From a virus (lineage: Duplodnaviria > Heunggongvirae > Uroviricota > Caudoviricetes), in the IMG/VR virus record IMGVR_UViG_3300029647_000066: a stretch of 12,210 nucleotides of DNA; one strand, given 5' to 3'. Shown here piece after piece: positions 1-11,744 of this stretch (positions within the stretch are counted from its first letter, which is position 1; the number at the start of each line of letters is the position of its first letter). A program made the position numbers and the translations under genes. The notes beneath the pieces were generated by a model that saw only the letters and a list, made by a program, of their open reading frames with translations, was not told the DNA's origin and did not search any database.

Positions 1-166
1 AAAGGTGATAAAGCGAATACCTGGGCCGTCTACGGTTCCACAGGATTCAAAGGAGTGAATGCGACCAATAACTGACTTGGTAGCCCCCGCCGCAGCGGTA
101 TTTTCTGTTGTATTACAATTAGTTAAATTACTCATATCGCTTCAATTGGCTCTAGTTAACTCTGGT

Positions 167-1162
167 TTATGGACGCATTATGGACATTCCTGACACCGGG
201 TTAAGAGTCACAGCATCTTGTAAGAAATCCGGTGCAAAGTGTGCGTAGGTCATAGTTTGCTGAATGTTAGAATGACCCAGGATGCGCTGCAATGTGATTA
301 TGTTACCTCCATTCATTATAAAATGTGTGGCAAATGTATGCCTCAAAACATGCACTGCCTGTCCGTCAGGTAAATCGGGTTTTACTTCCCTGAGAGCGTT
401 GCGCACTTTGTAGTAACTGGCATTAAAAAGCCTGCCAGAATTTTTGGTTTTGATCCGTTTAATCAAGTCCTGCGAAACGGGAATTGTCCTGCGCTTTCCG
501 TTTTTAGTTTTCATAAACGTAACCATCTGGTTAATGATGTGTTCAGCTTTTAAATTAGACACTTCACTCCAGCGTCCACCAGTAGAAAGGCAGACCAGAG
601 TCGCATTTAATTCATCACCATCAAGCATGGATAACAGTCGCGTAATCTCTTCACTGGACAAAAAAGCCATTTCTGTAACAGCTTCACGTAACCGCTTAAC
701 CTCACGGAACGGGTTGTGAGAGTGGTATTCACCGGCGTCAATTAACTTGGTGAACATCCCGCTCATTATTGCCAGATGCCGATTTACGCTGGCTGGTTTT
801 AGACCATCGTTCATCATTACAACGCGATAATCAGTTATCGTTTTCTTTGTTAGCTGGTCAGCTCTGGACACTCCCATTTCTGCAAATTTGGCGATTATTG
901 TCGTTAAACGCCCCCGTTCAATATCTCCACGCTCATGTGATTTTCCGTGATATATCCACCATCTGCCTAACAACTCTGTAAGAGTTCGGCGGTCGGCTGG
1001 TTTCTCCAGCCACTCTTTGTTGTGGTAGTTAACCAGTACATGACGTCCGAATGCTTGAGCTTCACCTTTAGTTTTAAATTTCCGCCTGATACGTTTTCCA
1101 TCTGCACCCTGCGGTCTGACGTCCACTTCATAACGACCATCATCGAGCTTTTTAATAGACAT
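167..1162 (-). CDS. int: Tyrosine integrase, P2-family
   Basis: 331-aa ORF with ATG at 1162 preceded by GGAGGG. N-terminus MSIKKLDDGRYEVD and C-terminal HxLRHTFATH, ITLQRILGH and TYAHFAP motifs are typical of P2/186-type integrases. Same strand as, and downstream of, the C repressor as in P2. Confidence 0.9.
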   Translation of the reverse strand: MSIKKLDDGRYEVDVRPQGADGKRIRRKFKTKGEAQAFGRHVLVNYHNKEWLEKPADRRTLTELLGRWWIYHGKSHERGDIERGRLTTIIAKFAEMGVSRADQLTKKTITDYRVVMMNDGLKPASVNRHLAIMSGMFTKLIDAGEYHSHNPFREVKRLREAVTEMAFLSSEEITRLLSMLDGDELNATLVCLSTGGRWSEVSNLKAEHIINQMVTFMKTKNGKRRTIPVSQDLIKRIKTKNSGRLFNASYYKVRNALREVKPDLPDGQAVHVLRHTFATHFIMNGGNIITLQRILGHSNIQQTMTYAHFAPDFLQDAVTLNPVSGMSIMRP

Positions 1163-1255
1163 AAAGCCCTCCGATGACGCTGTTTACTTCTACTACTTGA
1201 AAATTAATGCAATTTTCTTTCGTACATTTACTACACACATATGCTGAATAAATCG

Positions 1256-1555
1256 TCAGCCAGTTTTCTGGTCTGAGTGGTGCAAGGTTGTTGAGTCTTG
1301 CCCAATGTGTGCGAGAGCCGGGGCTATTTGTCCAGCTGCTGGATCTGTTTCATCAAACATGAACCAGTCACGATACTTGCGAAAGCGTGGATGCTTAAAC
1401 AGCTTCATACCTGCTTCCATAGGCATTTTTGATTTTCCTGATTCATATCCATGATATGTGTAGTAATTAATTCCAATTAATTCAGCAAGTTCCTTAGTTT
1501 TAAGGCGTTCGGATTCACGGATGAGCTTTAGTTTTTCACTTTGTTCACTTGACAT
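1256..1555 (-). CDS. C: Immunity repressor, P2 C-type (HTH)
   Basis: The ORF track begins at a TTG at 1573; the first ATG is at 1555 and gives 99 aa. HTH segment LKTKELAELIGINYYTYHGYESGKS and the C-terminal GQIAPALAHIGQ motif match my recollection of P2 C. Divergent from the cox-like gene. Confidence 0.8.
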   Translation of the reverse strand: MSSEQSEKLKLIRESERLKTKELAELIGINYYTYHGYESGKSKMPMEAGMKLFKHPRFRKYRDWFMFDETDPAAGQIAPALAHIGQDSTTLHHSDQKTG

Positions 1556-1648
1556 AATTTTGCTAATCTCCAATTATATTGCTACTTGGCAATTTGTGAT
1601 TCACTCAAAAAGGCTCTAGAAGGCTCCAGTTGGTGAATCGCAAATCTT
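1556..1648. promoter_or_regulatory. Lysis/lysogeny switch region with divergent promoters and candidate operator repeats
   Basis: Intergenic region between divergent C and cox-like genes. Direct repeat AGGCTC at 1611-1616 and 1621-1626 (10-bp periodicity), flanked by an imperfect inverted pair GTGATTCAC (1596-1604) and GTGAATCGC (1633-1641). Exact -35/-10 elements not resolved. Confidence 0.5.
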
Positions 1649-2020
1649 ATGGAGGATAGCAAAGTGACGACAAATGTAGAAATTTCTTGTCCAACTAGCG
1701 ATGAGGCAAGTTTCGAAAATGAAGCCAAACGTAAAAGCATTCAGATTTCAGAGCGCCCATCTGATTTGCTGTCGAAAGAAGGTTTTGCTCTTTACATCGG
1801 TAAGACACCACGCGCGGTGGCTGAAATGGCTAAAGCAGGAAAGCTGCCAGCCTTCTACATGACAGACCCATTAAAACCAAGAGGGAAAGCTGAATTATGG
1901 ATTAATCGCCGTGAGTGGGACAAGTACGCAGCCCAACTGGTTGATGAAGCTCCGACAGAATGGCATGACTGGAAAAATCGCATTAGTTACAGCAAATCAA
2001 GACATGGCCGTGCGGCTTAA
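1649..2020 (+). CDS. cox: Cox-like excisionase / early-promoter regulator
   Basis: First gene of the rightward operon, divergent from C. Segment GFALYIGKTPRAVAEMAKAGKLPAFYMTDP resembles the Cox/AlpA-type HTH region. Start uncertain: an in-frame GTG at 1664 has a better-placed GGAGGA than the ATG at 1649. Confidence 0.7.
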   Translation: MEDSKVTTNVEISCPTSDEASFENEAKRKSIQISERPSDLLSKEGFALYIGKTPRAVAEMAKAGKLPAFYMTDPLKPRGKAELWINRREWDKYAAQLVDEAPTEWHDWKNRISYSKSRHGRAA

Positions 2021-2030
2021 GGTGGAAAGG

Positions 2031-2201
2031 ATGAACGAGCCTCGTTGTATTGCTCAGTTATTGCGTAACGAAAGCCCCAGGGCGATTGACTTCACCATCA
2101 CCCACGGAAAGGGTCGCAAGGGAATCATTATCCGCACCAAAAAACAGAGTCCGTTAAAAAAGGTTCTGACCTTTCTGAAAAGCCGGAGGGTATGGAAATG
2201 A
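2031..2201 (+). CDS. Small hypothetical early protein (P2 orf78 position)
   Basis: 57-aa ORF with ATG at 2031 after GGTGGAAAGG. Its stop overlaps the next start as ATGA (2198-2201), suggesting translational coupling. No recognisable domain. Confidence 0.4.
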   Translation: MNEPRCIAQLLRNESPRAIDFTITHGKGRKGIIIRTKKQSPLKKVLTFLKSRRVWK

Positions 2202-2698
2202 CAGTGATGACGCTCAATCTCGTTGAAAAACAGCCAACAACTATGCGCCGGATAATTGGTAAGCATCTGGCCGTCCCTCGCTGGCAGGAGACATGCGATT
2301 ATTATAATCAGATGATGGAACGCGAACGGTTAACGGTTTGCTTCCATGCGCAGTTAAAACAACGTCACGCAACGATGCGTTTTGAAGAAATGAACGACGT
2401 CGAACGTGAACGGCTGGTTTGTGCAATTGATGAACTGCGCGGGGCATTCTCAAAACGCCGTCAGGTCGGTGCAAGTGAGTATGCATATATTAGTTTTTTA
2501 ACAGTCAGTCAGCGTCGTACTTTATTTATGCATGCGGGATTGACAGAAAAAGAATTCAATCAGCCGTACTGGCGCATTAATGAAGAATCATGTTACTGGC
2601 GTGATGCTTTATTCCGTGCATTACGTGAATTATTCAGTCTGTTTGAGTATGCACCGACAATTCTGACGTCGGTAAAACCAGAGCAATATCTGCATTAA
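2198..2698 (+). CDS. Early replication-associated protein, assigned by position to the P2 gene B slot
   Basis: 166-aa ORF with ATG at 2198 seven nt after GGAGGG (the ATG at 2192 is too close to the SD). Same position and length as P2 B. Sequence similarity to B was not verified. Confidence 0.6.
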   Translation: MTVMTLNLVEKQPTTMRRIIGKHLAVPRWQETCDYYNQMMERERLTVCFHAQLKQRHATMRFEEMNDVERERLVCAIDELRGAFSKRRQVGASEYAYISFLTVSQRRTLFMHAGLTEKEFNQPYWRINEESCYWRDALFRALRELFSLFEYAPTILTSVKPEQYLH

Positions 2699-2761
2699 GT
2701 AATTAACCCGAGTTTTTAACGCACTTAATTGTGCGGGGCTTCTTTTTGCCTGGAGAAAGTC

Positions 2762-2986
2762 ATGCATACAGTTTCTGAAAATCAGTGCGGTAAATACGCA
2801 TTACTGCTGCAACAGGCCAGAACCGAAGCACAGGCCGACGCAGCGACGCGCTTCTCTTCTCATCTTGACGCCATGATTCGCCACATCACAAAGGCGGAGT
2901 TATCCCGCGTGGAGATAGTCGAGCTGCTCAGTCAGGAGTCGGAAAAATTTCACAATATCGGATTATCTCGCGGGGAGGTGCTTTGA
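2762..2986 (+). CDS. Small hypothetical early protein (P2 orf80 position)
   Basis: ORF track starts at a TTG at 2729; ATG at 2762 follows GGAGAAAG. 74 aa. Stop overlaps the next start (TGATG). Confidence 0.55.
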
Positions 2987-3288
2987 TGTCCTGTTCTCAT
3001 TCAGTTGTATTACTGAATAACGCCTTAAAAATCGCCGTTATGAAAAATGGCGATTTGTCTCTTATTCAGCTTGGTCTTGATAAAGAAAAACGCGAAATAA
3101 CTGAATCTGTTATCGCGATTTATCAGAACGAATTAAACCTCCTGTCTGATGTGGTCAATTTACTTGTGAAACGCGCTGTATTTAACAAGCAAATCTCCTC
3201 CGTGGATGAACTGACGAAATTAACGACAGAAATCGCCAGCTATTGCGCTGATGAATTTAAGAAGCTGAACGACAAAAGGAGCTGGTAA
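2986..3288 (+). CDS. Small hypothetical early protein (P2 orf81 position)
   Basis: ATG at 2986 seven nt after GGGGAGG. 100 aa. Stop overlaps the next start (TAATG). Confidence 0.6.
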   Translation: MSCSHSVVLLNNALKIAVMKNGDLSLIQLGLDKEKREITESVIAIYQNELNLLSDVVNLLVKRAVFNKQISSVDELTKLTTEIASYCADEFKKLNDKRSW

Positions 3289-3512
3289 TGCCGGACAACG
3301 TAGATTTTATTCAGGAACAACAGGCTGAATTACTGGAGCGCCAGATTAACGCGGCAAGGGTAAAACATTGCGGTGTTTCTGCGCTGGTTTGCGAAGAGTG
3401 TGACGCGCCAATACCTGCTGCCCGTCGTGCGGCTTATCCGTCAGCCACGCGTTGTGTTTCCTGTCAGTCAGTCTTTGAAGCAAAAAACAAACATTACCGG
3501 AGAATGGCATGA
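3288..3512 (+). CDS. TraR/DksA-family C4 zinc-finger protein (P2 orf82 position)
   Basis: 74 aa with CEEC...17 residues...CVSC, the C-x2-C-x17-C-x2-C spacing of TraR/DksA zinc fingers. AAAGGAG six nt upstream of the ATG. Translationally coupled on both sides. Confidence 0.75.
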   Translation: MPDNVDFIQEQQAELLERQINAARVKHCGVSALVCEECDAPIPAARRAAYPSATRCVSCQSVFEAKNKHYRRMA

Positions 3513-3784
3513 GCATTCGTATTGAAATTGGCGAACGTTATGTCGTTACCAGTGACAGCTTTCAGTTTATTCTCCACGAGAAAAAGAGAGCGGAAAGCGG
3601 TAAAAACGCCGGTCAGGAATGGCTGTCGGTGGTTGGTTATTACCCGAAATTAAGCCAGCTCGTTTCCGGCCTGATGCATCACGATATTCTGACCGGAAGC
3701 GCAAAGTCTTTTGCTGATTTAAACGCGCAGGTTGAGCAACTCAGCAGGCGTTGTTCAGAGGCTTTTGGCTCATATGGCCGTTAA
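3509..3784 (+). CDS. Small hypothetical early protein (P2 orf83 position)
   Basis: 91-aa ORF with ATG at 3509 overlapping the previous stop (ATGA). Its 3' end overlaps the gene A start by 11 nt. Confidence 0.6.
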   Translation: MSIRIEIGERYVVTSDSFQFILHEKKRAESGKNAGQEWLSVVGYYPKLSQLVSGLMHHDILTGSAKSFADLNAQVEQLSRRCSEAFGSYGR

Positions 3785-6059
3785 AGCCTCCGGGCGTTTT
3801 GTCCCTCCGTCAGCATTTGCCGCAGGCACCGGTAAGGCGTTTACCGGTGCTTATGCATGGAACGCGCCACGCGAGGCTGTCGGGCGCGAAAGACCCCTTA
3901 CACGTGACGAGATGCGTCAGGTGCAAGGTGTTTTATCCACGATTAACCGCCTGCCTTACTTTTTGCGCTCGCTGTTTACCTCACGCTATGACTACATCCG
4001 GCGCAATAAAAGCCCGGTGCACGGGTTTTATTTCCTCACATCCACTTTTCAGCGTCGTTTATGGCCGCGCATTGAGCGCGTGAATCAGCGCCATGAAATG
4101 AACACCGACGCGTCGTTGCTGTTTCTGGCAGAGCGTGACCATTATGCGCGTCTGCCGGGGGTGAATGACAAGGAACTGAAAAAGTTTGCCGCCCGTATCT
4201 CATCGCAGCTTTTCATGATGTATGAGGAACTCTGCGATGCATGGGTTGATGCACATGGCGAGAAAGAATCGCTGTTTACGGATGAGGCTCAGGCGCATCT
4301 GTATGGTCATGTTGCTGGCGCTGCACGAGCTTTCAATATTTCCCCTCTCTACTGGAAAAAATACCGTAAAGGACAGATGACCACGAGGCAGGCATATTCT
4401 GCCATTGCCCGTCTGTTTAACGATGAGTGGTGGATTCATCAGCTTAAAGGTCAGCGTATGCGCTGGCATGAGGCGTTACTGATTGCTGTCGGGGAGGTGA
4501 ATAAAGACCGTTCTCCTTATGCCAGTAAACATGCCATTCGTGATGTGCGTGCACGCCGCCAGGCAAATCTGGAATTTCTTAAATCGTGTGACCTTGAAAA
4601 CAGGGAAACCGGCGAGCGCATCGACCTTATCAGTAAGGTGATGGGCAGTATTTCTAATCCTGAAATTCGCCGGATGGAGCTGATGAACACCATTGCCGGT
4701 ATTGAGCGTTACGCCGCCGCAGAGGGTGATGTGGGGATGTTTATCACGCTGACCGCGCCGTCAAAGTATCACCCGACACGTCAGGTCGGAAAAGGCGAAA
4801 GTAAAACCGTCCAGCTAAATCACGGCTGGAACGATGAGGCATTTAATCCAAAGGATGCGCAGCGTTATCTCTGCCGTATCTGGAGCCTGATGCGCACGGC
4901 ATTCAAGGATAATGATTTACAGGTCTACGGTTTGCGTGTCGTCGAGCCACACCACGACGGAACGCCGCACTGGCATATGATGCTTTTTTGTAATCCACGC
5001 CAGCGTAACCAGATTATCGAAATCATGCGTCGCTATGCGCTCAAAGAGGATGGCGACGAAAGAGGAGCCGCGCGAAACCGTTTTCAGGCAAAACACCTTA
5101 ACCGGGGCGGTGCTGCGGGGTATATCGCGAAATACATCTCAAAAAACATCGATGGCTATGCACTGGATGGTCAGCTCGATAACGATACCGGCAGACCGCT
5201 GAAAGACACTGCTGCGGCTGTTACCGCATGGGCGTCAACGTGGCGCATCCCACAATTTAAAACGGTTGGTCTGCCGACAATGGGGGCTTACCGTGAACTA
5301 CGCAAATTGCCTCGCGGCGTCAGCATTGCTGATGAGTTTGACGAACGCGTTGAGGCTGCACGTGCCGCCGCAGACAGTGGTGATTTTGCGTTGTATATCA
5401 GCGCGCAGGGTGGGGCAAATGTTCCGCGTGATTGTCAGACTGTCAGGGTTGCCCGTAGTCCGTCGGATGACGTTAACGAGTACGAGGAAGAAGTCGAGAG
5501 AGTGGTCGGCATTTACGCGCCGCATCTCGGCGCGCGTCATATTCATATCACCAGAACGACGGACTGGCGCATTGTGCCGAAAGTTCCGGTCGTTGAGCCT
5601 TTGACTTTAAAAAGCGGCATCGCCGCGCCTCGGAGTCCTGTCAATAACTGTGGAAAGCTCACCGGTGGTGATACTTCGTTACCGGCTCCCACACCTTCTG
5701 AGCACGCCGCAGCCGTGCTTAATCTGGTTGATGACGGTGTTATCGAATGGAATGACCCGGAGGTCGTGAGGGCGCTCAGGGGCGCATTAAAACACGGCCT
5801 GAGAACACCAAACCGTCAGCAAAGAAACGGAAGCCCGTTAAAACCGAATGAAATAGCGCCATCGGCCAGGCTGACCCGGTCGGAGCGTATGCAAATTACC
5901 CGTATCCGCGTTGACCTTGCTCAGAACGGTATCAGGCCGCAGCGATGGGAGCTTGAGGCGCTGGCGCGTGGCGCGACCGTAAATTATGACGGGAAAAAAT
6001 TCACGTATCCGGTCGCTGATGAGTGGCCGGGATTCTCAACAGTAATGGAGTGGAAATGA
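3774..6059 (+). CDS. A: Rolling-circle replication initiator endonuclease, P2 gene A family
   Basis: ORF track starts at 3732, but the internal ATG at 3774 (MAVKASGRF) gives 761 aa and avoids a long overlap with the upstream gene. HUH-type motif in GLRVVEPHHDGTPHWHMMLF and paired-tyrosine motif in AAGYIAKYISKNIDGY are hallmarks of phiX174/P2 A-type initiators. Confidence 0.9.
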   Translation: MAVKASGRFVPPSAFAAGTGKAFTGAYAWNAPREAVGRERPLTRDEMRQVQGVLSTINRLPYFLRSLFTSRYDYIRRNKSPVHGFYFLTSTFQRRLWPRIERVNQRHEMNTDASLLFLAERDHYARLPGVNDKELKKFAARISSQLFMMYEELCDAWVDAHGEKESLFTDEAQAHLYGHVAGAARAFNISPLYWKKYRKGQMTTRQAYSAIARLFNDEWWIHQLKGQRMRWHEALLIAVGEVNKDRSPYASKHAIRDVRARRQANLEFLKSCDLENRETGERIDLISKVMGSISNPEIRRMELMNTIAGIERYAAAEGDVGMFITLTAPSKYHPTRQVGKGESKTVQLNHGWNDEAFNPKDAQRYLCRIWSLMRTAFKDNDLQVYGLRVVEPHHDGTPHWHMMLFCNPRQRNQIIEIMRRYALKEDGDERGAARNRFQAKHLNRGGAAGYIAKYISKNIDGYALDGQLDNDTGRPLKDTAAAVTAWASTWRIPQFKTVGLPTMGAYRELRKLPRGVSIADEFDERVEAARAAADSGDFALYISAQGGANVPRDCQTVRVARSPSDDVNEYEEEVERVVGIYAPHLGARHIHITRTTDWRIVPKVPVVEPLTLKSGIAAPRSPVNNCGKLTGGDTSLPAPTPSEHAAAVLNLVDDGVIEWNDPEVVRALRGALKHGLRTPNRQQRNGSPLKPNEIAPSARLTRSERMQITRIRVDLAQNGIRPQRWELEALARGATVNYDGKKFTYPVADEWPGFSTVMEWK

Positions 6060-6511
6060 TGGCAAAAATTCACGAGGTAAAGCTGCACGCAAAATATTTT
6101 GACCTTGTGCTGGAAGGAAAGAAACGCGCAGAGTTTCGGAAAAATGACCGTAATTATGAGCGCGGGGACACGTTGATTTTGCATGAATGGGTGCAGGGTG
6201 TGTATACGGGGCGAAAGGTTGAAGCCCGGATAACAGATGTTACTGACTTGTCAGACTGGCTGGAAGATTATGTCTTGCTAAGTATTGAGCTGCTTAATAC
6301 AGGCGCATATGAGTTTGTGAACTGGAAAGAACTTAGTGAGCGTGGTCTGGTATTCAGAATTAATCATGAAATTATGCATCAGCTCGGCCTTGCTGTTGTG
6401 TATGAACCAGAGACGGGGATGTCTGGCGGGGCAGTGGTTGGTGCGGATGGGATATGGAACTATTCAGATGAACAGGTGGAGCGTGCACAGCAAAACGGGT
6501 GGCTTGGATAA
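6056..6511 (+). CDS. ASCH / DUF3850-like domain protein
   Basis: ORF track starts at a GTG at 6023; the ATG at 6056 overlaps the A stop (ATGA) and follows GGAG. N-terminal KIHEVKLHAKYFDLVLEGKKRAEFRKNDRNYERGDTLILHEW fits the DUF3850/ASCH pattern common in phage genomes. C-terminal half uncharacterised. Confidence 0.7.
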   Translation: MMAKIHEVKLHAKYFDLVLEGKKRAEFRKNDRNYERGDTLILHEWVQGVYTGRKVEARITDVTDLSDWLEDYVLLSIELLNTGAYEFVNWKELSERGLVFRINHEIMHQLGLAVVYEPETGMSGGAVVGADGIWNYSDEQVERAQQNGWLG

Positions 6512-6717
6512 TGCACAGAATACCAGGCGAGATACCGCAGCATAAAACTAAAAATATCAAGCTGATGGCCATTGTTCACCGTCTACAGCAGATTATGGTC
6601 AACGAAAATCTGACGCCCGATGAGCTGGTCGGGTGTGCCGAAATAGTCCGGGATAATTACGTATGGCTTAACTATATCGGTCAGCCCAGCGCTGCACCGC
6701 CACCACGCAGACGATAG
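6511..6717 (+). CDS. Small hypothetical protein
   Basis: ORF track starts at a GTG at 6499; the ATG at 6511 overlaps the previous stop (TAATG). 68 aa, no recognisable domain. Last ORF before the compositional shift to AT-rich DNA. Confidence 0.4.
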   Translation: MHRIPGEIPQHKTKNIKLMAIVHRLQQIMVNENLTPDELVGCAEIVRDNYVWLNYIGQPSAAPPPRRR

Positions 6718-7025
6718 AGAACGCAGCCAGCTCAGGATTGGCGGGGGATAGAATAACGAGCATAGTGATGCGATTAGACAAACAGACTGACTGGTACACT
6801 TAGGATGGTTATAGTGGTTTCTAAGTGCTTTAGCGATACATCTGGTGGACTGTTTTACCAACCTCAGAGTTAGCTGAATTTTTAACAAAATACCATTTTG
6901 ATAGATTTGCCTAATTTATTAATTAAACTATACTGGACTTATACACAGTGTTCTGTTAATTGTTAGGTTGGTAAGATATTGTGAGGAGGTGATTACTATC
7001 TTGGCATCAATCAAGTGGAGGTTAA

Positions 7026-7262
7026 ATGATGAATATATTTGAACGTATTATAGGTAAAGCTGCTATTGAAAAGGAAAGAGAACTGGCGAGGAGGCTTGAA
7101 GCATCTGGAACAAACACTGTTGAGGTGGTAGGTCGAGGCGCGATTATCACGTCTAAAGAAGACTTGGCAAGCTCAGATACAGTAAAATTGATGAAAATTA
7201 AAGCAAGAAAAATAGTTTCTGAGCAGGTAAAGCAAGAAGAAAAAATGGCTAAAGGGAATTAA
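7026..7262 (+). CDS. Small charged hypothetical protein, first gene of the rightward cargo operon
   Basis: 78-aa ORF, Lys/Glu-rich and probably helical. GGAGG at 7017-7021 four nt before the ATG. AT-rich codon usage unlike the backbone. The next gene starts 3 nt after its stop. Confidence 0.6.
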   Translation: MMNIFERIIGKAAIEKERELARRLEASGTNTVEVVGRGAIITSKEDLASSDTVKLMKIKARKIVSEQVKQEEKMAKGN

Positions 7263-7264
7263 TA

Positions 7265-8026
7265 ATGTTTGCTTTATTAATTATTCCATTACTTGTGAGT
7301 GGTTATATTGTATTAACCACTCATCCTTATCATTTCTATAGATTACACCGTTATGATGGGCAGTTGTTATATATGAAGTCAGCCGCCTTTGGTCTGTGGT
7401 GTTTTATATGGACATTGATTATAGCTTACTTAATAAAATGGATATGTCCTAGCTTCCATCCTGTCACGATGGTTCGGGAACAATTAGATCTCAAACTTAG
7501 TGACAATGGTACTGAAAGAATCATAGGATGGATGATTTTACTTTCATGTGGAACGATATTTTTGGCTTGGATATGGAGTGTCGGTGCTAGATATTTGGTT
7601 ATATATAGAGCTAAAATTATAAATTATATCCAAGGGGTAAAGGCTGCCAATATTGATTATGAGAATCTTGTCATGCTAAGGATGAGGCAAGAGCTTATTA
7701 ATGATAATCCAATGGATGAAATATTTTTTGATTCGTTAGTTGATAGACGTTCAATACTTATTACGTTGCAAAATAAAAAGACATATGTAGGAATTGTTAA
7801 CGCATTAGGTGAGCCTAACGAGAAAGAAGGACCTAACCAGTATGTTTCAATCTATCCTATTATCTCTGGGTATAGAGATAAGGATTCATTGAAAGTAATC
7901 TTGGTGAATGAATATAGAGAGCTTGAGGATGCTGATACTAGTATCATCTTTCCACTAAAAGAAATTTCGCAAGTTTCTTGGTTTGATATGGATATTCATA
8001 AAATAGTTGAAAATAATAAGGTGTAG
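7265..8026 (+). CDS. Predicted integral membrane protein (about 3 TM helices N-terminal, soluble C-terminal domain), function unknown
   Basis: 253-aa ORF with AAGGGA seven nt before the ATG. Hydrophobic segments FALLIIPLLVSGYIVL, AAFGLWCFIWTLIIAYLIKWI and IIGWMILLSCGTIFLAWIWSVGA, followed by a hydrophilic domain of about 130 aa. AT-rich. Ends just before a hairpin shared with the convergent operon. Confidence 0.7.
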   Translation: MFALLIIPLLVSGYIVLTTHPYHFYRLHRYDGQLLYMKSAAFGLWCFIWTLIIAYLIKWICPSFHPVTMVREQLDLKLSDNGTERIIGWMILLSCGTIFLAWIWSVGARYLVIYRAKIINYIQGVKAANIDYENLVMLRMRQELINDNPMDEIFFDSLVDRRSILITLQNKKTYVGIVNALGEPNEKEGPNQYVSIYPIISGYRDKDSLKVILVNEYRELEDADTSIIFPLKEISQVSWFDMDIHKIVENNKV

Positions 8027-8029
8027 TAA

Positions 8030-8054
8030 ATGGTCACCTATAAAAGGTGACCAT
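8030..8054. terminator. Bidirectional hairpin terminator between the convergent cargo operons
   Basis: Perfect 10-bp inverted repeat ATGGTCACCT (8030-8039) and AGGTGACCAT (8045-8054) with a 5-nt loop. It sits between the stop of the + gene (8026) and the stop of the - gene (8060), with T-rich sequence downstream on the + strand and A-rich sequence upstream. Confidence 0.6.
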
Positions 8055-8059
8055 AATGC

Positions 8060-10324
8060 TTATTTTTGACGAATCCTGATTTTTGGTTGTTCACGAACAA
8101 CAATATCAGTTTCTTTCCAACCAAGATTATTTATTTCAACCTCGGCTTCGTTGTAGACTGTAGTAGAATTGGCAAGAGATCTTAACGTAATAGCCAATAC
8201 AGCACGTTGAGGTGAAGATAGAGGCTCTTGCTCTGCTCGTCTCTGAACATCAAGTTTAAGTCTCCATTGCTCCCCATTTATACCTTGCGGAAATTGTTTT
8301 CTATAAACTTTGACTGGAGACCATTTGAAGCCATTTTCTATCAGTACCTTTTCAAATAATTCACTCTTTTCTTTTATTTGTGGAATTTTTCCGCTATGTA
8401 TCCATTTAGCGTTAACTGGATCATAAGTGTAAGTCCCGAATGACACATCCACATTAGAACGGCAATATTCAGATGGGTAGTCATAATCAAGCGGTGGAGA
8501 ATAAACGAGTGTCATAATAATTTCACCTGTGAATTTTCCATCCTCAGTACGTAATGACTGTGGTATTACAAATGGCGTTCTACTGAATTCAATACCTTCT
8601 CGGGTATCTATTTCAAATAGAAATGTAATCTCATTTTTATTGCAACCAATAATATCATTTATATGATCGCTTGGGCGTCCAAATCCTTGATAATTAAACG
8701 CATAATGCTCCGTTTTGGCTGGTGAGTTTTTTAACGCAGAATGAATTAATAGTGCCTTGATACGTTCAGGCGATGGTGAAATAGAACCATTAACATCTAG
8801 TTCATGCCACAGTGATGCCGCTAAACTTGAGATTAACGGTGCTGATAAACTTGTGCCAATACTTTCGCAAAGAGCATTGTCCTCGCCAATAGCTATGATT
8901 CCGGTATGTTCACAGTTTAATTTACTGTCACAATTACCTCCAAAGTGATTTATCTCTGGTTTGGGTATAAAGGCTGGGCCGGGACCTCTTCTAGAAAAAG
9001 ATGAAGGTTCAAATCTTTTGACCACAGAGTCAGACGATTCTAAATGGGCAACTGAGCCAACAGTTAATGAACGAACAGAATCTGCGGGGGCTGATATTCT
9101 GTCATGCCCACCTAATTCTTGAGGAGGCCAGGTTCGTTGAGGATCATAAATGTAGTTGCCGGATGCTACGACGAAAAGACAATCATGCTCATCATGAAGT
9201 GCATTTAAAAAATGCCCCAATTCAGAGAAGCTGTCTTCAGAACATGGGGATTGACAACCTAATGACAGATTCCATACACGTACTTCTGGATAGGTGGTCA
9301 CAGCCTCTCGGATAGCTTTCATTAATTGTGGCAATTTGAGCGTACCATCTTTGGGAAAGGCTGCAACATCAACAATTTCAGCTTGGCATTGAGGAAAACC
9401 AGCATAGTTATTCAACCATCTTCCATTAATTGCTAAACTTGCAACCATGTTCCCATGAGAATAGTCGTGTTCTCCTTTTACTAAATCTAAACTATCCCAA
9501 ATCCATGGCCTAAGTATGTTGTTATTGGGATCGACTCCGCTATCTATAATTCCGAGTAGTGGATAATGTTTATCCTCTTGAGGTAAGGGAAAATCATCTA
9601 GGTCTAGAGTTTCAGCAGGAATATATTGCGATACTGTATGAGTAAGACCAAATGTTGGCATAGGTTCTAATTTTCGTATGCCAATAAAACTTGCCAGTTG
9701 GGCGATGTTATCATTCCCTTTTACTTCATATATACTCAAATCTGAACTGATATCATACTTTTTGGGTTTTTGTATTCCTAGTTCATCTGCAAATTCCATT
9801 AATTCTTTGTCGATACTGCGGTTAGTTGTTCTATCTTTATGGTCAAAGAGTTTCAGAAGAAAACTATCTGATTTATTTTTATCTATAACATCATGGTTAA
9901 GACTAAAAGGTTCGATCTTTTCAATTACAGCAATATGTACTGTCCCATTATGAGAATTAGTGCTATTTTCAATTTTTTTGCGAAGTTGTGCTAACCCTTT
10001 TTCAGTAACACTTATAAGTAATTCTCCAAAATTATCACTGCCTATTACGGGACATGTATTATCACCTAATAGGCTTGATGGGCGATGTGACTTAGCAAGA
10101 GCTTTTTCATGAAGAGTAACTCTAGCCACCGCCGGTATATTGGGCCATTTTTTAAATGAGCTCTGGAAAAAATTTTTAACGTCATCGACTTCTTGTTTGA
10201 GTCTATTTTTTAGACTAGTTGTTACTGTTCGGATAGGTTGTTTCTTTCCGAAATTATATGTTTTTTCAGTAAAATCTTGAGGTGTCGCCTCAATTATTTT
10301 TATTGGTCTTTCTTTGTTACTCAT
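8060..10324 (-). CDS. Subtilisin-like serine peptidase (S8 family), predicted cytoplasmic, with N- and C-terminal extension domains
   Basis: 754-aa ORF. S8 catalytic motifs in canonical order: Asp in LLGIIDSGVD (about residue 261), His in DYSHGNMVASLA (about 290), oxyanion Asn in FVVASGNY (about 390), Ser in GTSLSAPLISSLAASL (about 492). No N-terminal hydrophobic signal sequence. Its ATG overlaps the stop of the upstream ATPase gene (ATGA at 10321-10324). Confidence 0.9.
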   Translation of the reverse strand: MSNKERPIKIIEATPQDFTEKTYNFGKKQPIRTVTTSLKNRLKQEVDDVKNFFQSSFKKWPNIPAVARVTLHEKALAKSHRPSSLLGDNTCPVIGSDNFGELLISVTEKGLAQLRKKIENSTNSHNGTVHIAVIEKIEPFSLNHDVIDKNKSDSFLLKLFDHKDRTTNRSIDKELMEFADELGIQKPKKYDISSDLSIYEVKGNDNIAQLASFIGIRKLEPMPTFGLTHTVSQYIPAETLDLDDFPLPQEDKHYPLLGIIDSGVDPNNNILRPWIWDSLDLVKGEHDYSHGNMVASLAINGRWLNNYAGFPQCQAEIVDVAAFPKDGTLKLPQLMKAIREAVTTYPEVRVWNLSLGCQSPCSEDSFSELGHFLNALHDEHDCLFVVASGNYIYDPQRTWPPQELGGHDRISAPADSVRSLTVGSVAHLESSDSVVKRFEPSSFSRRGPGPAFIPKPEINHFGGNCDSKLNCEHTGIIAIGEDNALCESIGTSLSAPLISSLAASLWHELDVNGSISPSPERIKALLIHSALKNSPAKTEHYAFNYQGFGRPSDHINDIIGCNKNEITFLFEIDTREGIEFSRTPFVIPQSLRTEDGKFTGEIIMTLVYSPPLDYDYPSEYCRSNVDVSFGTYTYDPVNAKWIHSGKIPQIKEKSELFEKVLIENGFKWSPVKVYRKQFPQGINGEQWRLKLDVQRRAEQEPLSSPQRAVLAITLRSLANSTTVYNEAEVEINNLGWKETDIVVREQPKIRIRQK

Positions 10325-11484
10325 AATATCTCTCTATAGTTCTTAGTTAGCCTTGACACTTTAGCATTTGAAAGCCCTAGTATTTTTGCTATCTTTCGTA
10401 TTGTAAATCTTTTGGGATTGTATTCTCTGAGAGTGGTCACAATCTTTATAAGTAAATTATCTTCTTCATCAAATGTAACTCCCTTCGCTTCTAAGATAGC
10501 CTCGACTAAAAATCGGGTATCGATTTGTTTATTATTGTAAACCAGAGCATGTCGCTCAGATCTTAAGCAGCATTGTTCTATAAATGAGCAGTTTAGCCCT
10601 GATGATATTTCCGCAAGGTCATCAACAAAATCGTCATATGTAGCTTTTATGTTTGAATATTGTTCAAATAGTTGTTTTCTGACTTCAAAATCAGGCAATC
10701 CAATAGATATTCTATACTCAAAGCGCCTCCAAACTGCGCTATCTAGAAGATTTTCATGATTACTTGCAGCAATCAATATTGTTTCTTCAGGTAGATTGTC
10801 AATATTTTGCAATAAAGAAACCACCACCCTCTTCAGTTCACCTAACTCATGCTGATCATCTCTAGCCTTTGCTAGAGAATCTAGTTCATCTAGAAATAAA
10901 ACACATGGTGCTTTACTTGCATACTCAAATAGCTGCCTGATATTTTTAGAAGTAGACCCCAGATATGATGAGACTAAGGAGTCACATCTTGCAGTAAGAA
11001 GCGGTAAATTTAGACAGGATGCAATATATTTTGATGTCAAGGTTTTACCACAACCTGGTGGCCCATATAAAATCATAGAGGATGTCACGCCAAGACCGGC
11101 ATCCTTTAATTCTTTAGCTCGTTCAGTGAAAGTCAAAAATTCTTTAATTTTTTTCAGAGTGCTATCTTTCAACAATGGGAGTTGAATTTCAGAAGACGGT
11201 TGAGTTACGTCTGCTAAATCAAATTTAGTTTCTTTATCTACAGGTAATGTATCAAGACGTTCAAAAATAGGTGATGTACTGCGTGATACTTTCTGCAAGT
11301 TAAACGTGTTTTTATCTTGAATACTACCTCTAATGGCTGAAGCAAGCTCAGGCAGCCCCATAGAATCATAGGAACGCGCGAGTTTCGAAGCCTGCCGAAC
11401 AAAAGCAACTTTATCCCCTTTGAGTCCAAGACTGATAAGCTGCGAAAGTATCTCGTTTGTGGTCATTTGTGATACAAACCTCAT
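10321..11484 (-). CDS. AAA+ ATPase (classic-clade AAA domain) with C-terminal HTH-like tail
   Basis: 387-aa ORF. Walker A in LYGPPGCGKT (about residue 147), Walker B in CVLFLDELD (about 199-200), second-region-of-homology-like segment in AASNHENLLDSAVWRRFEYRISIGLP. C-terminal RKIAKILGLSNAKVSRLTKNY resembles a helix-turn-helix. First gene of the leftward cargo operon; start could instead be the second ATG at 11466. Confidence 0.9.
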   Translation of the reverse strand: MRFVSQMTTNEILSQLISLGLKGDKVAFVRQASKLARSYDSMGLPELASAIRGSIQDKNTFNLQKVSRSTSPIFERLDTLPVDKETKFDLADVTQPSSEIQLPLLKDSTLKKIKEFLTFTERAKELKDAGLGVTSSMILYGPPGCGKTLTSKYIASCLNLPLLTARCDSLVSSYLGSTSKNIRQLFEYASKAPCVLFLDELDSLAKARDDQHELGELKRVVVSLLQNIDNLPEETILIAASNHENLLDSAVWRRFEYRISIGLPDFEVRKQLFEQYSNIKATYDDFVDDLAEISSGLNCSFIEQCCLRSERHALVYNNKQIDTRFLVEAILEAKGVTFDEEDNLLIKIVTTLREYNPKRFTIRKIAKILGLSNAKVSRLTKNYREIL

Positions 11485-11725
11485 TAATCTGTTGTCTAAA
11501 TGGCTTATAGGTGAGACAAATTTCTATTTTAATGTAGTTTATATGTATTTTGGTGAAACGAACACTATGTTTTACATAAATCTTTCAGGTTTGGAGTTCT
11601 TGGAGGGCATAGAGTTGCATCAATTTGCATTCTAATTAGACTTTTTTATTGCTATCGTATTCTACATGTGACTAGGTCTGCCCTTCCTGATGCGTTTGCA
11701 TTAAAACCTCCCCATGAAGCGGGCG

Positions 11726-11744
11726 GGCGAGGCGGGGAAAGCAC
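11726..11744 (+). other. cos site (P2-type 19-nt cohesive end)
   Basis: GGCGAGGCGGGGAAAGCAC is present exactly and matches the P2 cohesive-end sequence as I recall it. It lies in a GC-rich block just after the cargo island, where the P2 map places cos (after the tin/old slot). Confidence 0.6.

Follow-up and report, generated by a model that had tools for sequence, protein, structure and literature searches.

IetAS systems, in which a serine protease toxin is paired with an ATPase antitoxin, were first described as plasmid-stabilising toxin-antitoxin (TA) modules (PMC13069673). The pair of the Agrobacterium Ti plasmid pTiC58 is presented as a stabilisation TA system in the accounts that PMC13069673 and PMC5006074 give of Yamamoto et al. 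2009, and papers citing Gao et al. 2020 credit that work with ietAS as an anti-phage system. Defence against phage requires the protease activity of IetAS. How the system stops phages 'remains unknown' according to a 2026 paper, whose authors failed to obtain their ietHAS variant in a form with mutated ietA (PMC13069673). In Bacillus, a homologue protects by abortive infection and turns toxic once the SPbeta protein YosG (gene yosG) is expressed (bioRxiv 10.1101/2022.08.27.505566). SgiAT, the homologue on SGI1, is a functional TA pair which, expressed from its own promoter, gave no clear post-segregational killing (PMC5006074). In a Mycoplasma TA pair of an AAA-ATPase (353 amino acids, aa) and a subtilase (757 aa), the minimised cell Syn2.0 did not survive deletion of the antitoxin alone, and the subtilase toxin caused clumping, elongation and filamentation when produced in E. 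coli (PMC8562856). Finally, for E. coli, ietAS has been discussed as an example of defence encoded within an integrated element, for instance a prophage (bioRxiv 10.1101/2022.08.21.504612). Our literature searches found no structural or mechanistic study of IetAS. Here we analyse a S8 peptidase gene and the ATPase gene that precedes it in a 12,210-nucleotide stretch of viral DNA (IMG/VR record IMGVR_UViG_3300029647_000066), hereafter the window.

Judged by its homologues, the peptidase gene is very probably the ietS of an IetAS pair, both in family membership and in its TA/abortive-infection logic. The PADLOC IetS model PDLC02197 matched residues 1-747 over profile positions 1-747 of 749 (E 1.1e-273, 908 bits), and seven other PADLOC IetS models matched the protein as well. 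The open reading frame (ORF) directly upstream matched the PADLOC IetA model PDLC02196 with residues 9-382 (profile positions 3-370 of 374, E 9.1e-132). Among NCBIfam models, IteS_antiphage (IetS) and IteA_antiphage (IetA) were by far the top matches and were covered over the whole profile, and PHROG families were matched for both proteins. The two genes share one orientation and are translationally coupled, the stop codon of ietA overlapping the start codon of ietS by 4 bp (ATGA, 10321-10324). The same order of an AAA gene followed by an S8 gene recurs between unrelated flanks in a Pseudohongiella genome, a cyanobacterial metagenome-assembled genome (MAG) and a Flavobacteriales MAG, that is, in three distant phyla. 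Since IetAS is already described as a TA and anti-phage system, the gene belongs to a known kind of element. An initial annotation, made from the letters of the window without database searches, had rightly pointed to the neighbouring ATPase, which is the overlapping IetAS partner, and had missed the identity with the published system.

The ietS ORF starts with ATG and encodes 754 aa, and full-length homologues of 740-790 aa number in the hundreds, which places the ORF far beyond chance. Pfam Peptidase_S8 matched residues 255-549 (E 6.7e-24). The catalytic core had previously been put at residues 255-500; its start agrees with the Pfam match, whereas its end lies near residue 550, position 492 being the catalytic serine. 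The triad D261, H290 and S492 and the oxyanion residue N390 are invariant in an alignment of 62 homologues, and they lie in the motifs LLGIIDSGVDP, HGNMVA, ASGN and GTSLSAP (canonical DSG, HG, GN and GTS). With its Asp-His-Ser triad intact, IetS is predicted to be catalytically competent.

The N-terminus of IetS is hydrophilic (MSNKERPIKIIEATPQDFTEK), with Kyte-Doolittle maxima of 0.46 for a 10-residue mean within the first 70 aa and 1.15 for a 19-residue mean over the whole protein. Hydropathy, lipobox and Tat scans revealed no transmembrane (TM) segment, lipobox or twin-arginine motif in IetS, and none of the 178 full-length homologues shows a hydrophobic stretch resembling a signal peptide within its first 60 aa. 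The scans thus agree with the earlier description of a hydrophilic N-terminus lacking a secretion signal, and show, at the level of prediction, a cytoplasmic protein with no export signal anywhere in its family.

We then modelled full-length IetS with AlphaFold2 (AF2) from the 62 homologues and also examined the C-terminal domain as a structure. The model (mean predicted local distance difference test score, pLDDT, 90.7; predicted template modelling score 0.92) comprises five segments: two N-terminal domains (N1 and N2), a 32-residue linker, the S8 core and, at the C-terminus, a beta-sandwich that includes two helices. The large extensions noticed earlier on both sides of the core are, as the model and their conservation indicate, folded and conserved domains. 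The N-terminal one, estimated at about 250 residues, was confirmed with 254 aa before the core; the C-terminal one exists too, but measures about 205 aa rather than 230.

N1 consists of a beta-hairpin, a long helix and a beta-alpha-beta-beta-alpha-beta unit, an order read from the DSSP string only, and contains the invariant motif A75-x-A-K-S-H-R-P82. An N1 profile searched against 1.84 billion representative proteins matched 542 clusters. Among the 150 matches listed, N1 stood at or near the N-terminus of proteins of about 740-790 aa or belonged to shorter proteins, which may mostly be gene fragments, and no architecture other than that of IetS occurred. This suggests that, among these 150, N1 is a domain of IetS-like proteins only. 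Pfam and PDB sequence searches gave no match to N1; a weak similarity to ribosomal protein S3 in a PDB profile search (E 0.075) was treated as chance. An internal duplication giving rise to N1 and N2 was considered and dropped, as hhalign of one against the other gave a probability < 1%.

In the AF2 model, N2 is a beta-alpha-beta-beta-alpha-beta domain, the same order as in the subtilisin pro-peptide. The full-length model aligned with 318 of the 355 residues of unautoprocessed pro-subtilisin E (3whi), with 329 of 423 residues of EpiP and with 305 of 352 residues of PCSK9 with its pro-domain, while only 234-255 residues aligned with mature-only subtilases. The approximately 75-80 residues gained with the pro-peptide-containing structures would place N2 where an I9 pro-peptide sits on its enzyme. 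Foldseek also ranked pro-peptide-containing structures first, and the best PDB matches were subtilases retaining a pro-peptide, a C-terminal beta-domain or both. The predicted fold therefore argues for a pro-peptide-like N2 docked as in unprocessed pro-subtilisin. An inhibitory pro-domain had been proposed for the extension as a whole; the predicted fold supports this for the proximal part, N2 (residues 146-222). Between N2 and the core, the linker carries two conserved elements, [F/M]222-P223-x-[Y/F]225 and [F/L]245-P-x-P248...Y254-P255, with P223 in 60 of 62 sequences and both an aromatic residue at 225 and P248 in all 62. Its pLDDT dips to 61 at residues 231-240, and short strands span residues 224-227 and 231-233.

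The C-terminal domain is predicted to be a jelly-roll whose placement matches that of the C-domains in Tk-SP and KP-43; the whole IetS model aligned with 373 of the 434 residues of KP-43, which carries such a C-terminal beta-domain. Pro-peptide-like and jelly-roll folds hence occupy the positions, relative to the catalytic domain, that are canonical for secreted subtilases. The possibility that the flanking regions are ordinary pro- and P-domains of a secreted enzyme, raised in the initial annotation as the case against its own proposal, is thereby borne out in fold likeness, but neither in sequence nor in secretion: the protein is predicted to be cytoplasmic and has an ATPase partner. Invariant residues of the C-domain are E619-Y-C621, N624, K667-W668, W687, R696 and W736. 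In the initial annotation, this extension was a candidate substrate- or partner-binding domain, a role that is conjectural. A profile of its residues ~638-715 gave weak hits against PDB sequences to the ribosomal protein eL31 of many eukaryotic species (best E 0.004) and to a designed DPBB protein (E 0.43), all with a W...G...P.R[IL][RK]V pattern. These matches are probably due to chance.

The domains differ in conservation. Mean identity to distant members of the subfamily is 46% for the core, 43% for the C-domain and 37% for N1, but 24-26% for N2 and the linker. That N2 and the linker are the most variable parts fits a pro-domain, and N1, being conserved within the subfamily, does not look like a typical fast-evolving sensor. 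Beyond the subfamily, IetS homologues from rhizobial and Agrobacterium plasmids align only from about residue 245, that is, over the core and C-domain at about 30% identity, and for several PADLOC IetS models the match begins no earlier than residues 143-177. The N-terminal module thus appears to have been exchanged between IetS subfamilies or to have diverged strongly.

The partner gene ietA has a longest ORF of 387 codons beginning at 11484; PGAP and a homologue alignment favour Met7 at 11466, which gives a protein of 381 aa. Its Pfam AAA domain covers residues 137-262, and the closest solved relatives by sequence are the D2 rings of VCP/Cdc48 (E 1e-50, PDB sequence search). IetA has a Walker A motif, GPPGCGKT, at residues 141-148 and a Walker B motif, VLFLDE, at 195-200. 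Four IetA homologues from three phyla, 37-42% identical, share both motifs, with a T/S swap in Walker A (GPPGCGK[T/S]), and have in common a pore-loop-1 S-S-[Y/L]-L-G, a highly conserved D-D-x-H-E segment, N242 and R253-R254. Given this conservation of Walker, pore-loop and arginine-finger motifs, IetA looks like a classic-clade AAA+ protein that is an active, ring-forming and substrate-engaging motor and not a degenerate scaffold. Its C-terminal tail (residues ~350-385, window 10321-10440, minus strand) received about a dozen sub-threshold helix-turn-helix hits in Pfam, the best with E 0.0027. The tail may bind DNA and serve autoregulation, as happens with many antitoxins; a search upstream of ietA for inverted repeats that could serve as operators found none.

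The window covers the early region of a P2-like (Peduovirus) prophage with genes for integrase, C-type repressor, Cox, B, A and a DUF3850/ASCH protein; in the prophage context, the portal, terminase and capsid genes follow after the cargo region. P2-like phages are 96-97% identical to the window over positions 58-6730 and again from ~11697, where the P2 cosR feature maps (~11697-11743), and nothing aligns in between. The insert thus lies between conserved P2 genes, on the A/DUF3850 side and the cos-portal side, and is missing from related phages: ietAS sits in the variable A-to-cos cargo locus of an E. coli P2-like prophage. Besides ietAS, the cargo holds a convergent gene pair for proteins of 78 and 253 aa. 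Its G+C content (33-42% over ~7000-11500, about 5 kb, versus 44-56% in the phage core) is consistent with recent horizontal acquisition. We found identical cargo in 12 of 5,426 complete E. coli genomes, in every case on the chromosome.

How might the pair work? The cytoplasmic IetS would start out as a pro-subtilase that inhibits itself in the manner of a zymogen, its active-site cleft covered by N2 and by the conserved [F/M]-P-x-[Y/F] linker. A ring-forming IetA would spend ATP to hold IetS in, or return it to, a harmless state, probably via N1 or a terminus. Infection or loss of the element would remove or occupy IetA, upon which IetS would mature and degrade essential proteins; growth would then stop before the incoming phage finishes its cycle, and both the lysogen population and the prophage would be protected. 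We put this specific model of an unfoldase antitoxin acting on a zymogen forward tentatively and consider it doubtful. In its most explicit form, IetS would be a cytoplasmic pro-subtilase that never loses its pro-domains, IetA an 'unfoldase antitoxin' that constantly re-sets or restrains IetS via N1 with its A-x-A-K-S-H-R-P loop, phage proteins would compete for or block the IetA pore, and IetS would auto-process at the [F/M]-P-x-[Y/F] linker, a conjecture to which we assign an equally low probability. If true, bacterial immunity would here link an AAA+ motor to the control of a zymogen in a new way.

Several points speak against the identification or against this model. Both proteins miss the NCBIfam equivalog cutoffs (782 against 900 bits for IetS, 387 against 510 bits for IetA), which explains their generic RefSeq names, 'S8 family peptidase' and 'AAA family ATPase'. 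We read these scores as the mark of a divergent IetS/IetA subfamily and not of non-membership, with function transferred by homology. The role of this allele, with IetS toxic, IetA neutralising and abortive infection as the outcome, is accordingly that of its homologues, carried over by analogy. N2 resembles a pro-peptide in predicted structure only: searches of the isolated residues 1-255 and 533-754 at Pfam E <= 10 gave no hits (no Inhibitor_I9, P_proprotein or PPC), and hhalign of N1 and N2 against four I9 pro-peptides gave probabilities < 1%. The position of the linker over the active-site cleft is putative. At the aromatic position of the pore loop, two of the four IetA sequences compared have Y and the other two L, which weakens a strict unfoldase reading. 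IetS homologues are toxic when IetA is missing, so a lock formed by the pro-domain cannot suffice by itself.

Other readings of the locus have to be weighed against these results. Were IetS an ordinary secreted subtilase with a standard pro-peptide and a P- or PPC-domain, unrelated to the ATPase, it would be expected to resemble Tk-SP, KP-43 and pro-subtilisin E, and these secreted enzymes with such accessory domains are indeed its closest solved structures by fold. Such an enzyme would, however, need an export signal, of which there is no trace in IetS (signal peptide, lipobox, Tat motif or TM segment) or in the 178 homologues, and it would account neither for the additional 145-aa N1 domain nor for the overlap with an AAA+ gene in a pair conserved across phyla, nor for the end-to-end match to the IetS profile. 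We consider this reading almost certainly wrong; together with that of a phage morphogenetic protease, it was ruled out by the missing export signal, the operon structure and the position in the cargo locus. A pure addiction module, stabilising the prophage by post-segregational killing and playing no part against other phages, is a more serious proposal, as IetAS of pTiC58 and SgiAT of SGI1 were both first characterised as stabilisation TA systems and the present pair also travels on a mobile element. Yet family members protect against phages by abortive infection, the pair occupies a variable cargo slot of a P2-like prophage jointly with another moron-like pair, and no clear post-segregational killing was seen with SgiAT under its own promoter. 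We think it unlikely that addiction is the whole function, and the two roles are not mutually exclusive.

Two further readings accept an IetAS pair but distribute the control differently. The N-terminal extension of IetS, for which the initial annotation suggested phage sensing as one role, might itself be the phage sensor, binding a phage protein directly to release the protease and leaving IetA a mere accessory. The restriction of N1 to IetS-like proteins among the 150 matches listed, and its difference between IetS subfamilies, form the pattern expected of an exchangeable specificity module, but in its own subfamily N1 comes close to the core in conservation and keeps the invariant A-x-A-K-S-H-R-P motif, unlike fast-evolving sensor surfaces, and the genetics of homologues place control in IetA as the antitoxin. 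A sensor role of this kind strikes us as improbable. Conversely, IetA could be an activator whose AAA+ ring, on a trigger, unfolds and strips the N-terminal pro-domains and so matures the protease, much as subtilases are matured when their pro-peptide is removed. A classic ring AAA+ protein with pore-loop and arginine-finger motifs, next to a protease that looks like an unprocessed zymogen, would suit this role. In every tested homologue, though, toxicity comes from the protease by itself and is relieved by the ATPase, whose loss or mutation is lethal or cannot be cloned; we regard activation by IetA as very unlikely. An IetAS pair in which IetA restrains a toxic IetS is thus the reading we prefer, and the features that belong to it are collected in Table 1.

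Table 1. Positions in the window of the ietAS genes, the predicted domains of IetS and features of the surrounding cargo region.
Feature	Position	Strand	Basis
ietA, AAA+ ATPase (putative antitoxin), WP_000210436.1 'AAA family ATPase'	10321..11484	-	PADLOC, Pfam, PDB matches, motifs
ietS, 754-aa S8 peptidase (predicted cytoplasmic; putative toxin/effector), WP_000066157.1	8060..10324	-	PADLOC, NCBIfam, Pfam, PGAP
N1 domain, residues 1-145	9890..10324	-	AF2 model, invariant columns, profile search
N2 domain, residues 146-222, predicted pro-peptide-like (I9-like)	9659..9889	-	secondary-structure order, structural alignments
Linker, residues 223-254, candidate autoinhibitory or autoprocessing segment	9563..9658	-	column counts, model
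S8 catalytic domain, residues 255-550	8675..9562	-	
Catalytic codons	D261 9542-9544; H290 9455-9457; N390 9155-9157; S492 8849-8851	-	
C-terminal domain, residues 551-754, predicted jelly-roll beta-sandwich with two added helices	8063..8674	-	
Variable cargo region of P2-like prophage	6731..11696	.	between gene A/DUF3850 and cos; alignment gap, G+C, prophage context
Perfect palindrome, 10-bp stem (ATGGTCACCTATAAAAGGTGACCAT)	8030..8054	.	within 33-bp gap separating convergent stop codons of 253-aa gene and ietS

The neighbourhood of ietAS holds further accessory genes. Just upstream of the variable cargo, a P2-type accessory gene (window 6023-6511, plus strand) that is conserved in P2-like phages encodes a DUF3850/ASCH domain, an RNA-binding-like fold, fused with DUF7415. 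The second cargo module (7026-7262 and 7265-8026, both plus strand) is convergent with ietAS in the same P2 variable locus and comprises the 78-aa protein (phrog_37504) and the 253-aa protein (phrog_3630), the latter with three N-terminal TM-like segments. Neither had a significant match in Pfam, PADLOC or NCBIfam, the one NCBIfam hit (E 0.0078) scoring well under its cutoff. Relatives of the 253-aa protein are encoded close to the termini of temperate-phage records, in Cronobacter phiES15 (47%), Pseudomonas vB_Pae_U5/U6 (33%) and, in part, Salmonella SEN4/SEN5. The two proteins are a candidate exclusion or defence pair, as yet uncharacterised. The palindrome between this module and ietS is likely a bidirectional terminator. 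A promoter scan found 19 promoters, not above the 18 expected from shuffled sequence, and an Rfam scan of the window gave no match.

The locus in itself adds little, as PADLOC-type tools already call ietAS and E. coli ietAS in an integrated element has been discussed before. Its value is that of a clean and compact two-gene example, in a P2-like cargo slot, of a system whose mechanism remains open. It offers experimental handles on an ATPase-neutralised protease toxin, namely a predicted docked pro-peptide-like domain, a conserved N1, a putative jelly-roll C-domain and an AAA+ partner that appears competent as a motor.

Compared with known systems, the locus is closest to IetAS of pTiC58 and the ietAS of Gao et al. 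2020, with which it shares the two-gene operon in which an AAA+ ATPase gene precedes that of an S8 peptidase of about 750 aa, matches to the IetS and IetA profiles over their full length, an intact triad and Walker motifs, and carriage on a mobile element; it differs from them in belonging to a divergent subfamily and in being carried by a P2-like prophage and not a plasmid. With the rhizobial plasmid homologues, the N-terminal 245 residues of this IetS are not recognisably common. SgiAT of SGI1 and TA132/133 of Mycoplasma mycoides, likened here by description, follow the same logic of an AAA-ATPase antitoxin and a subtilase toxin of similar sizes, but SgiAT lies on a genomic island and TA132/133 on the chromosome, and both were studied as TA systems only. 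The ietHAS system (Liu-DS4; PMC13069673) has IetA and IetS components and requires protease activity; it adds an SNF2 helicase, whereas the neighbours at this locus are the 78-aa protein and the 253-aa membrane protein, encoded on the opposite strand. Among proteases, pro-Tk-SP of Thermococcus kodakarensis (3afg) and KP-43 (1wmd) combine an N-terminal pro-peptide with a C-terminal beta-jelly-roll, but are secreted and have no ATPase partner; IetS adds the 145-aa N1, and its C-domain, at 204 aa, has about double the length and aligns over only 90-115 residues; identity is 11-24%. The Bacillus intracellular subtilisins, of which 7xr8 and 4zoq were among the structural hits, have an extension of only ~18 residues and, unlike IetS, neither folded pro-domains nor a jelly-roll nor an ATPase partner, and the spacing of their motifs differs.

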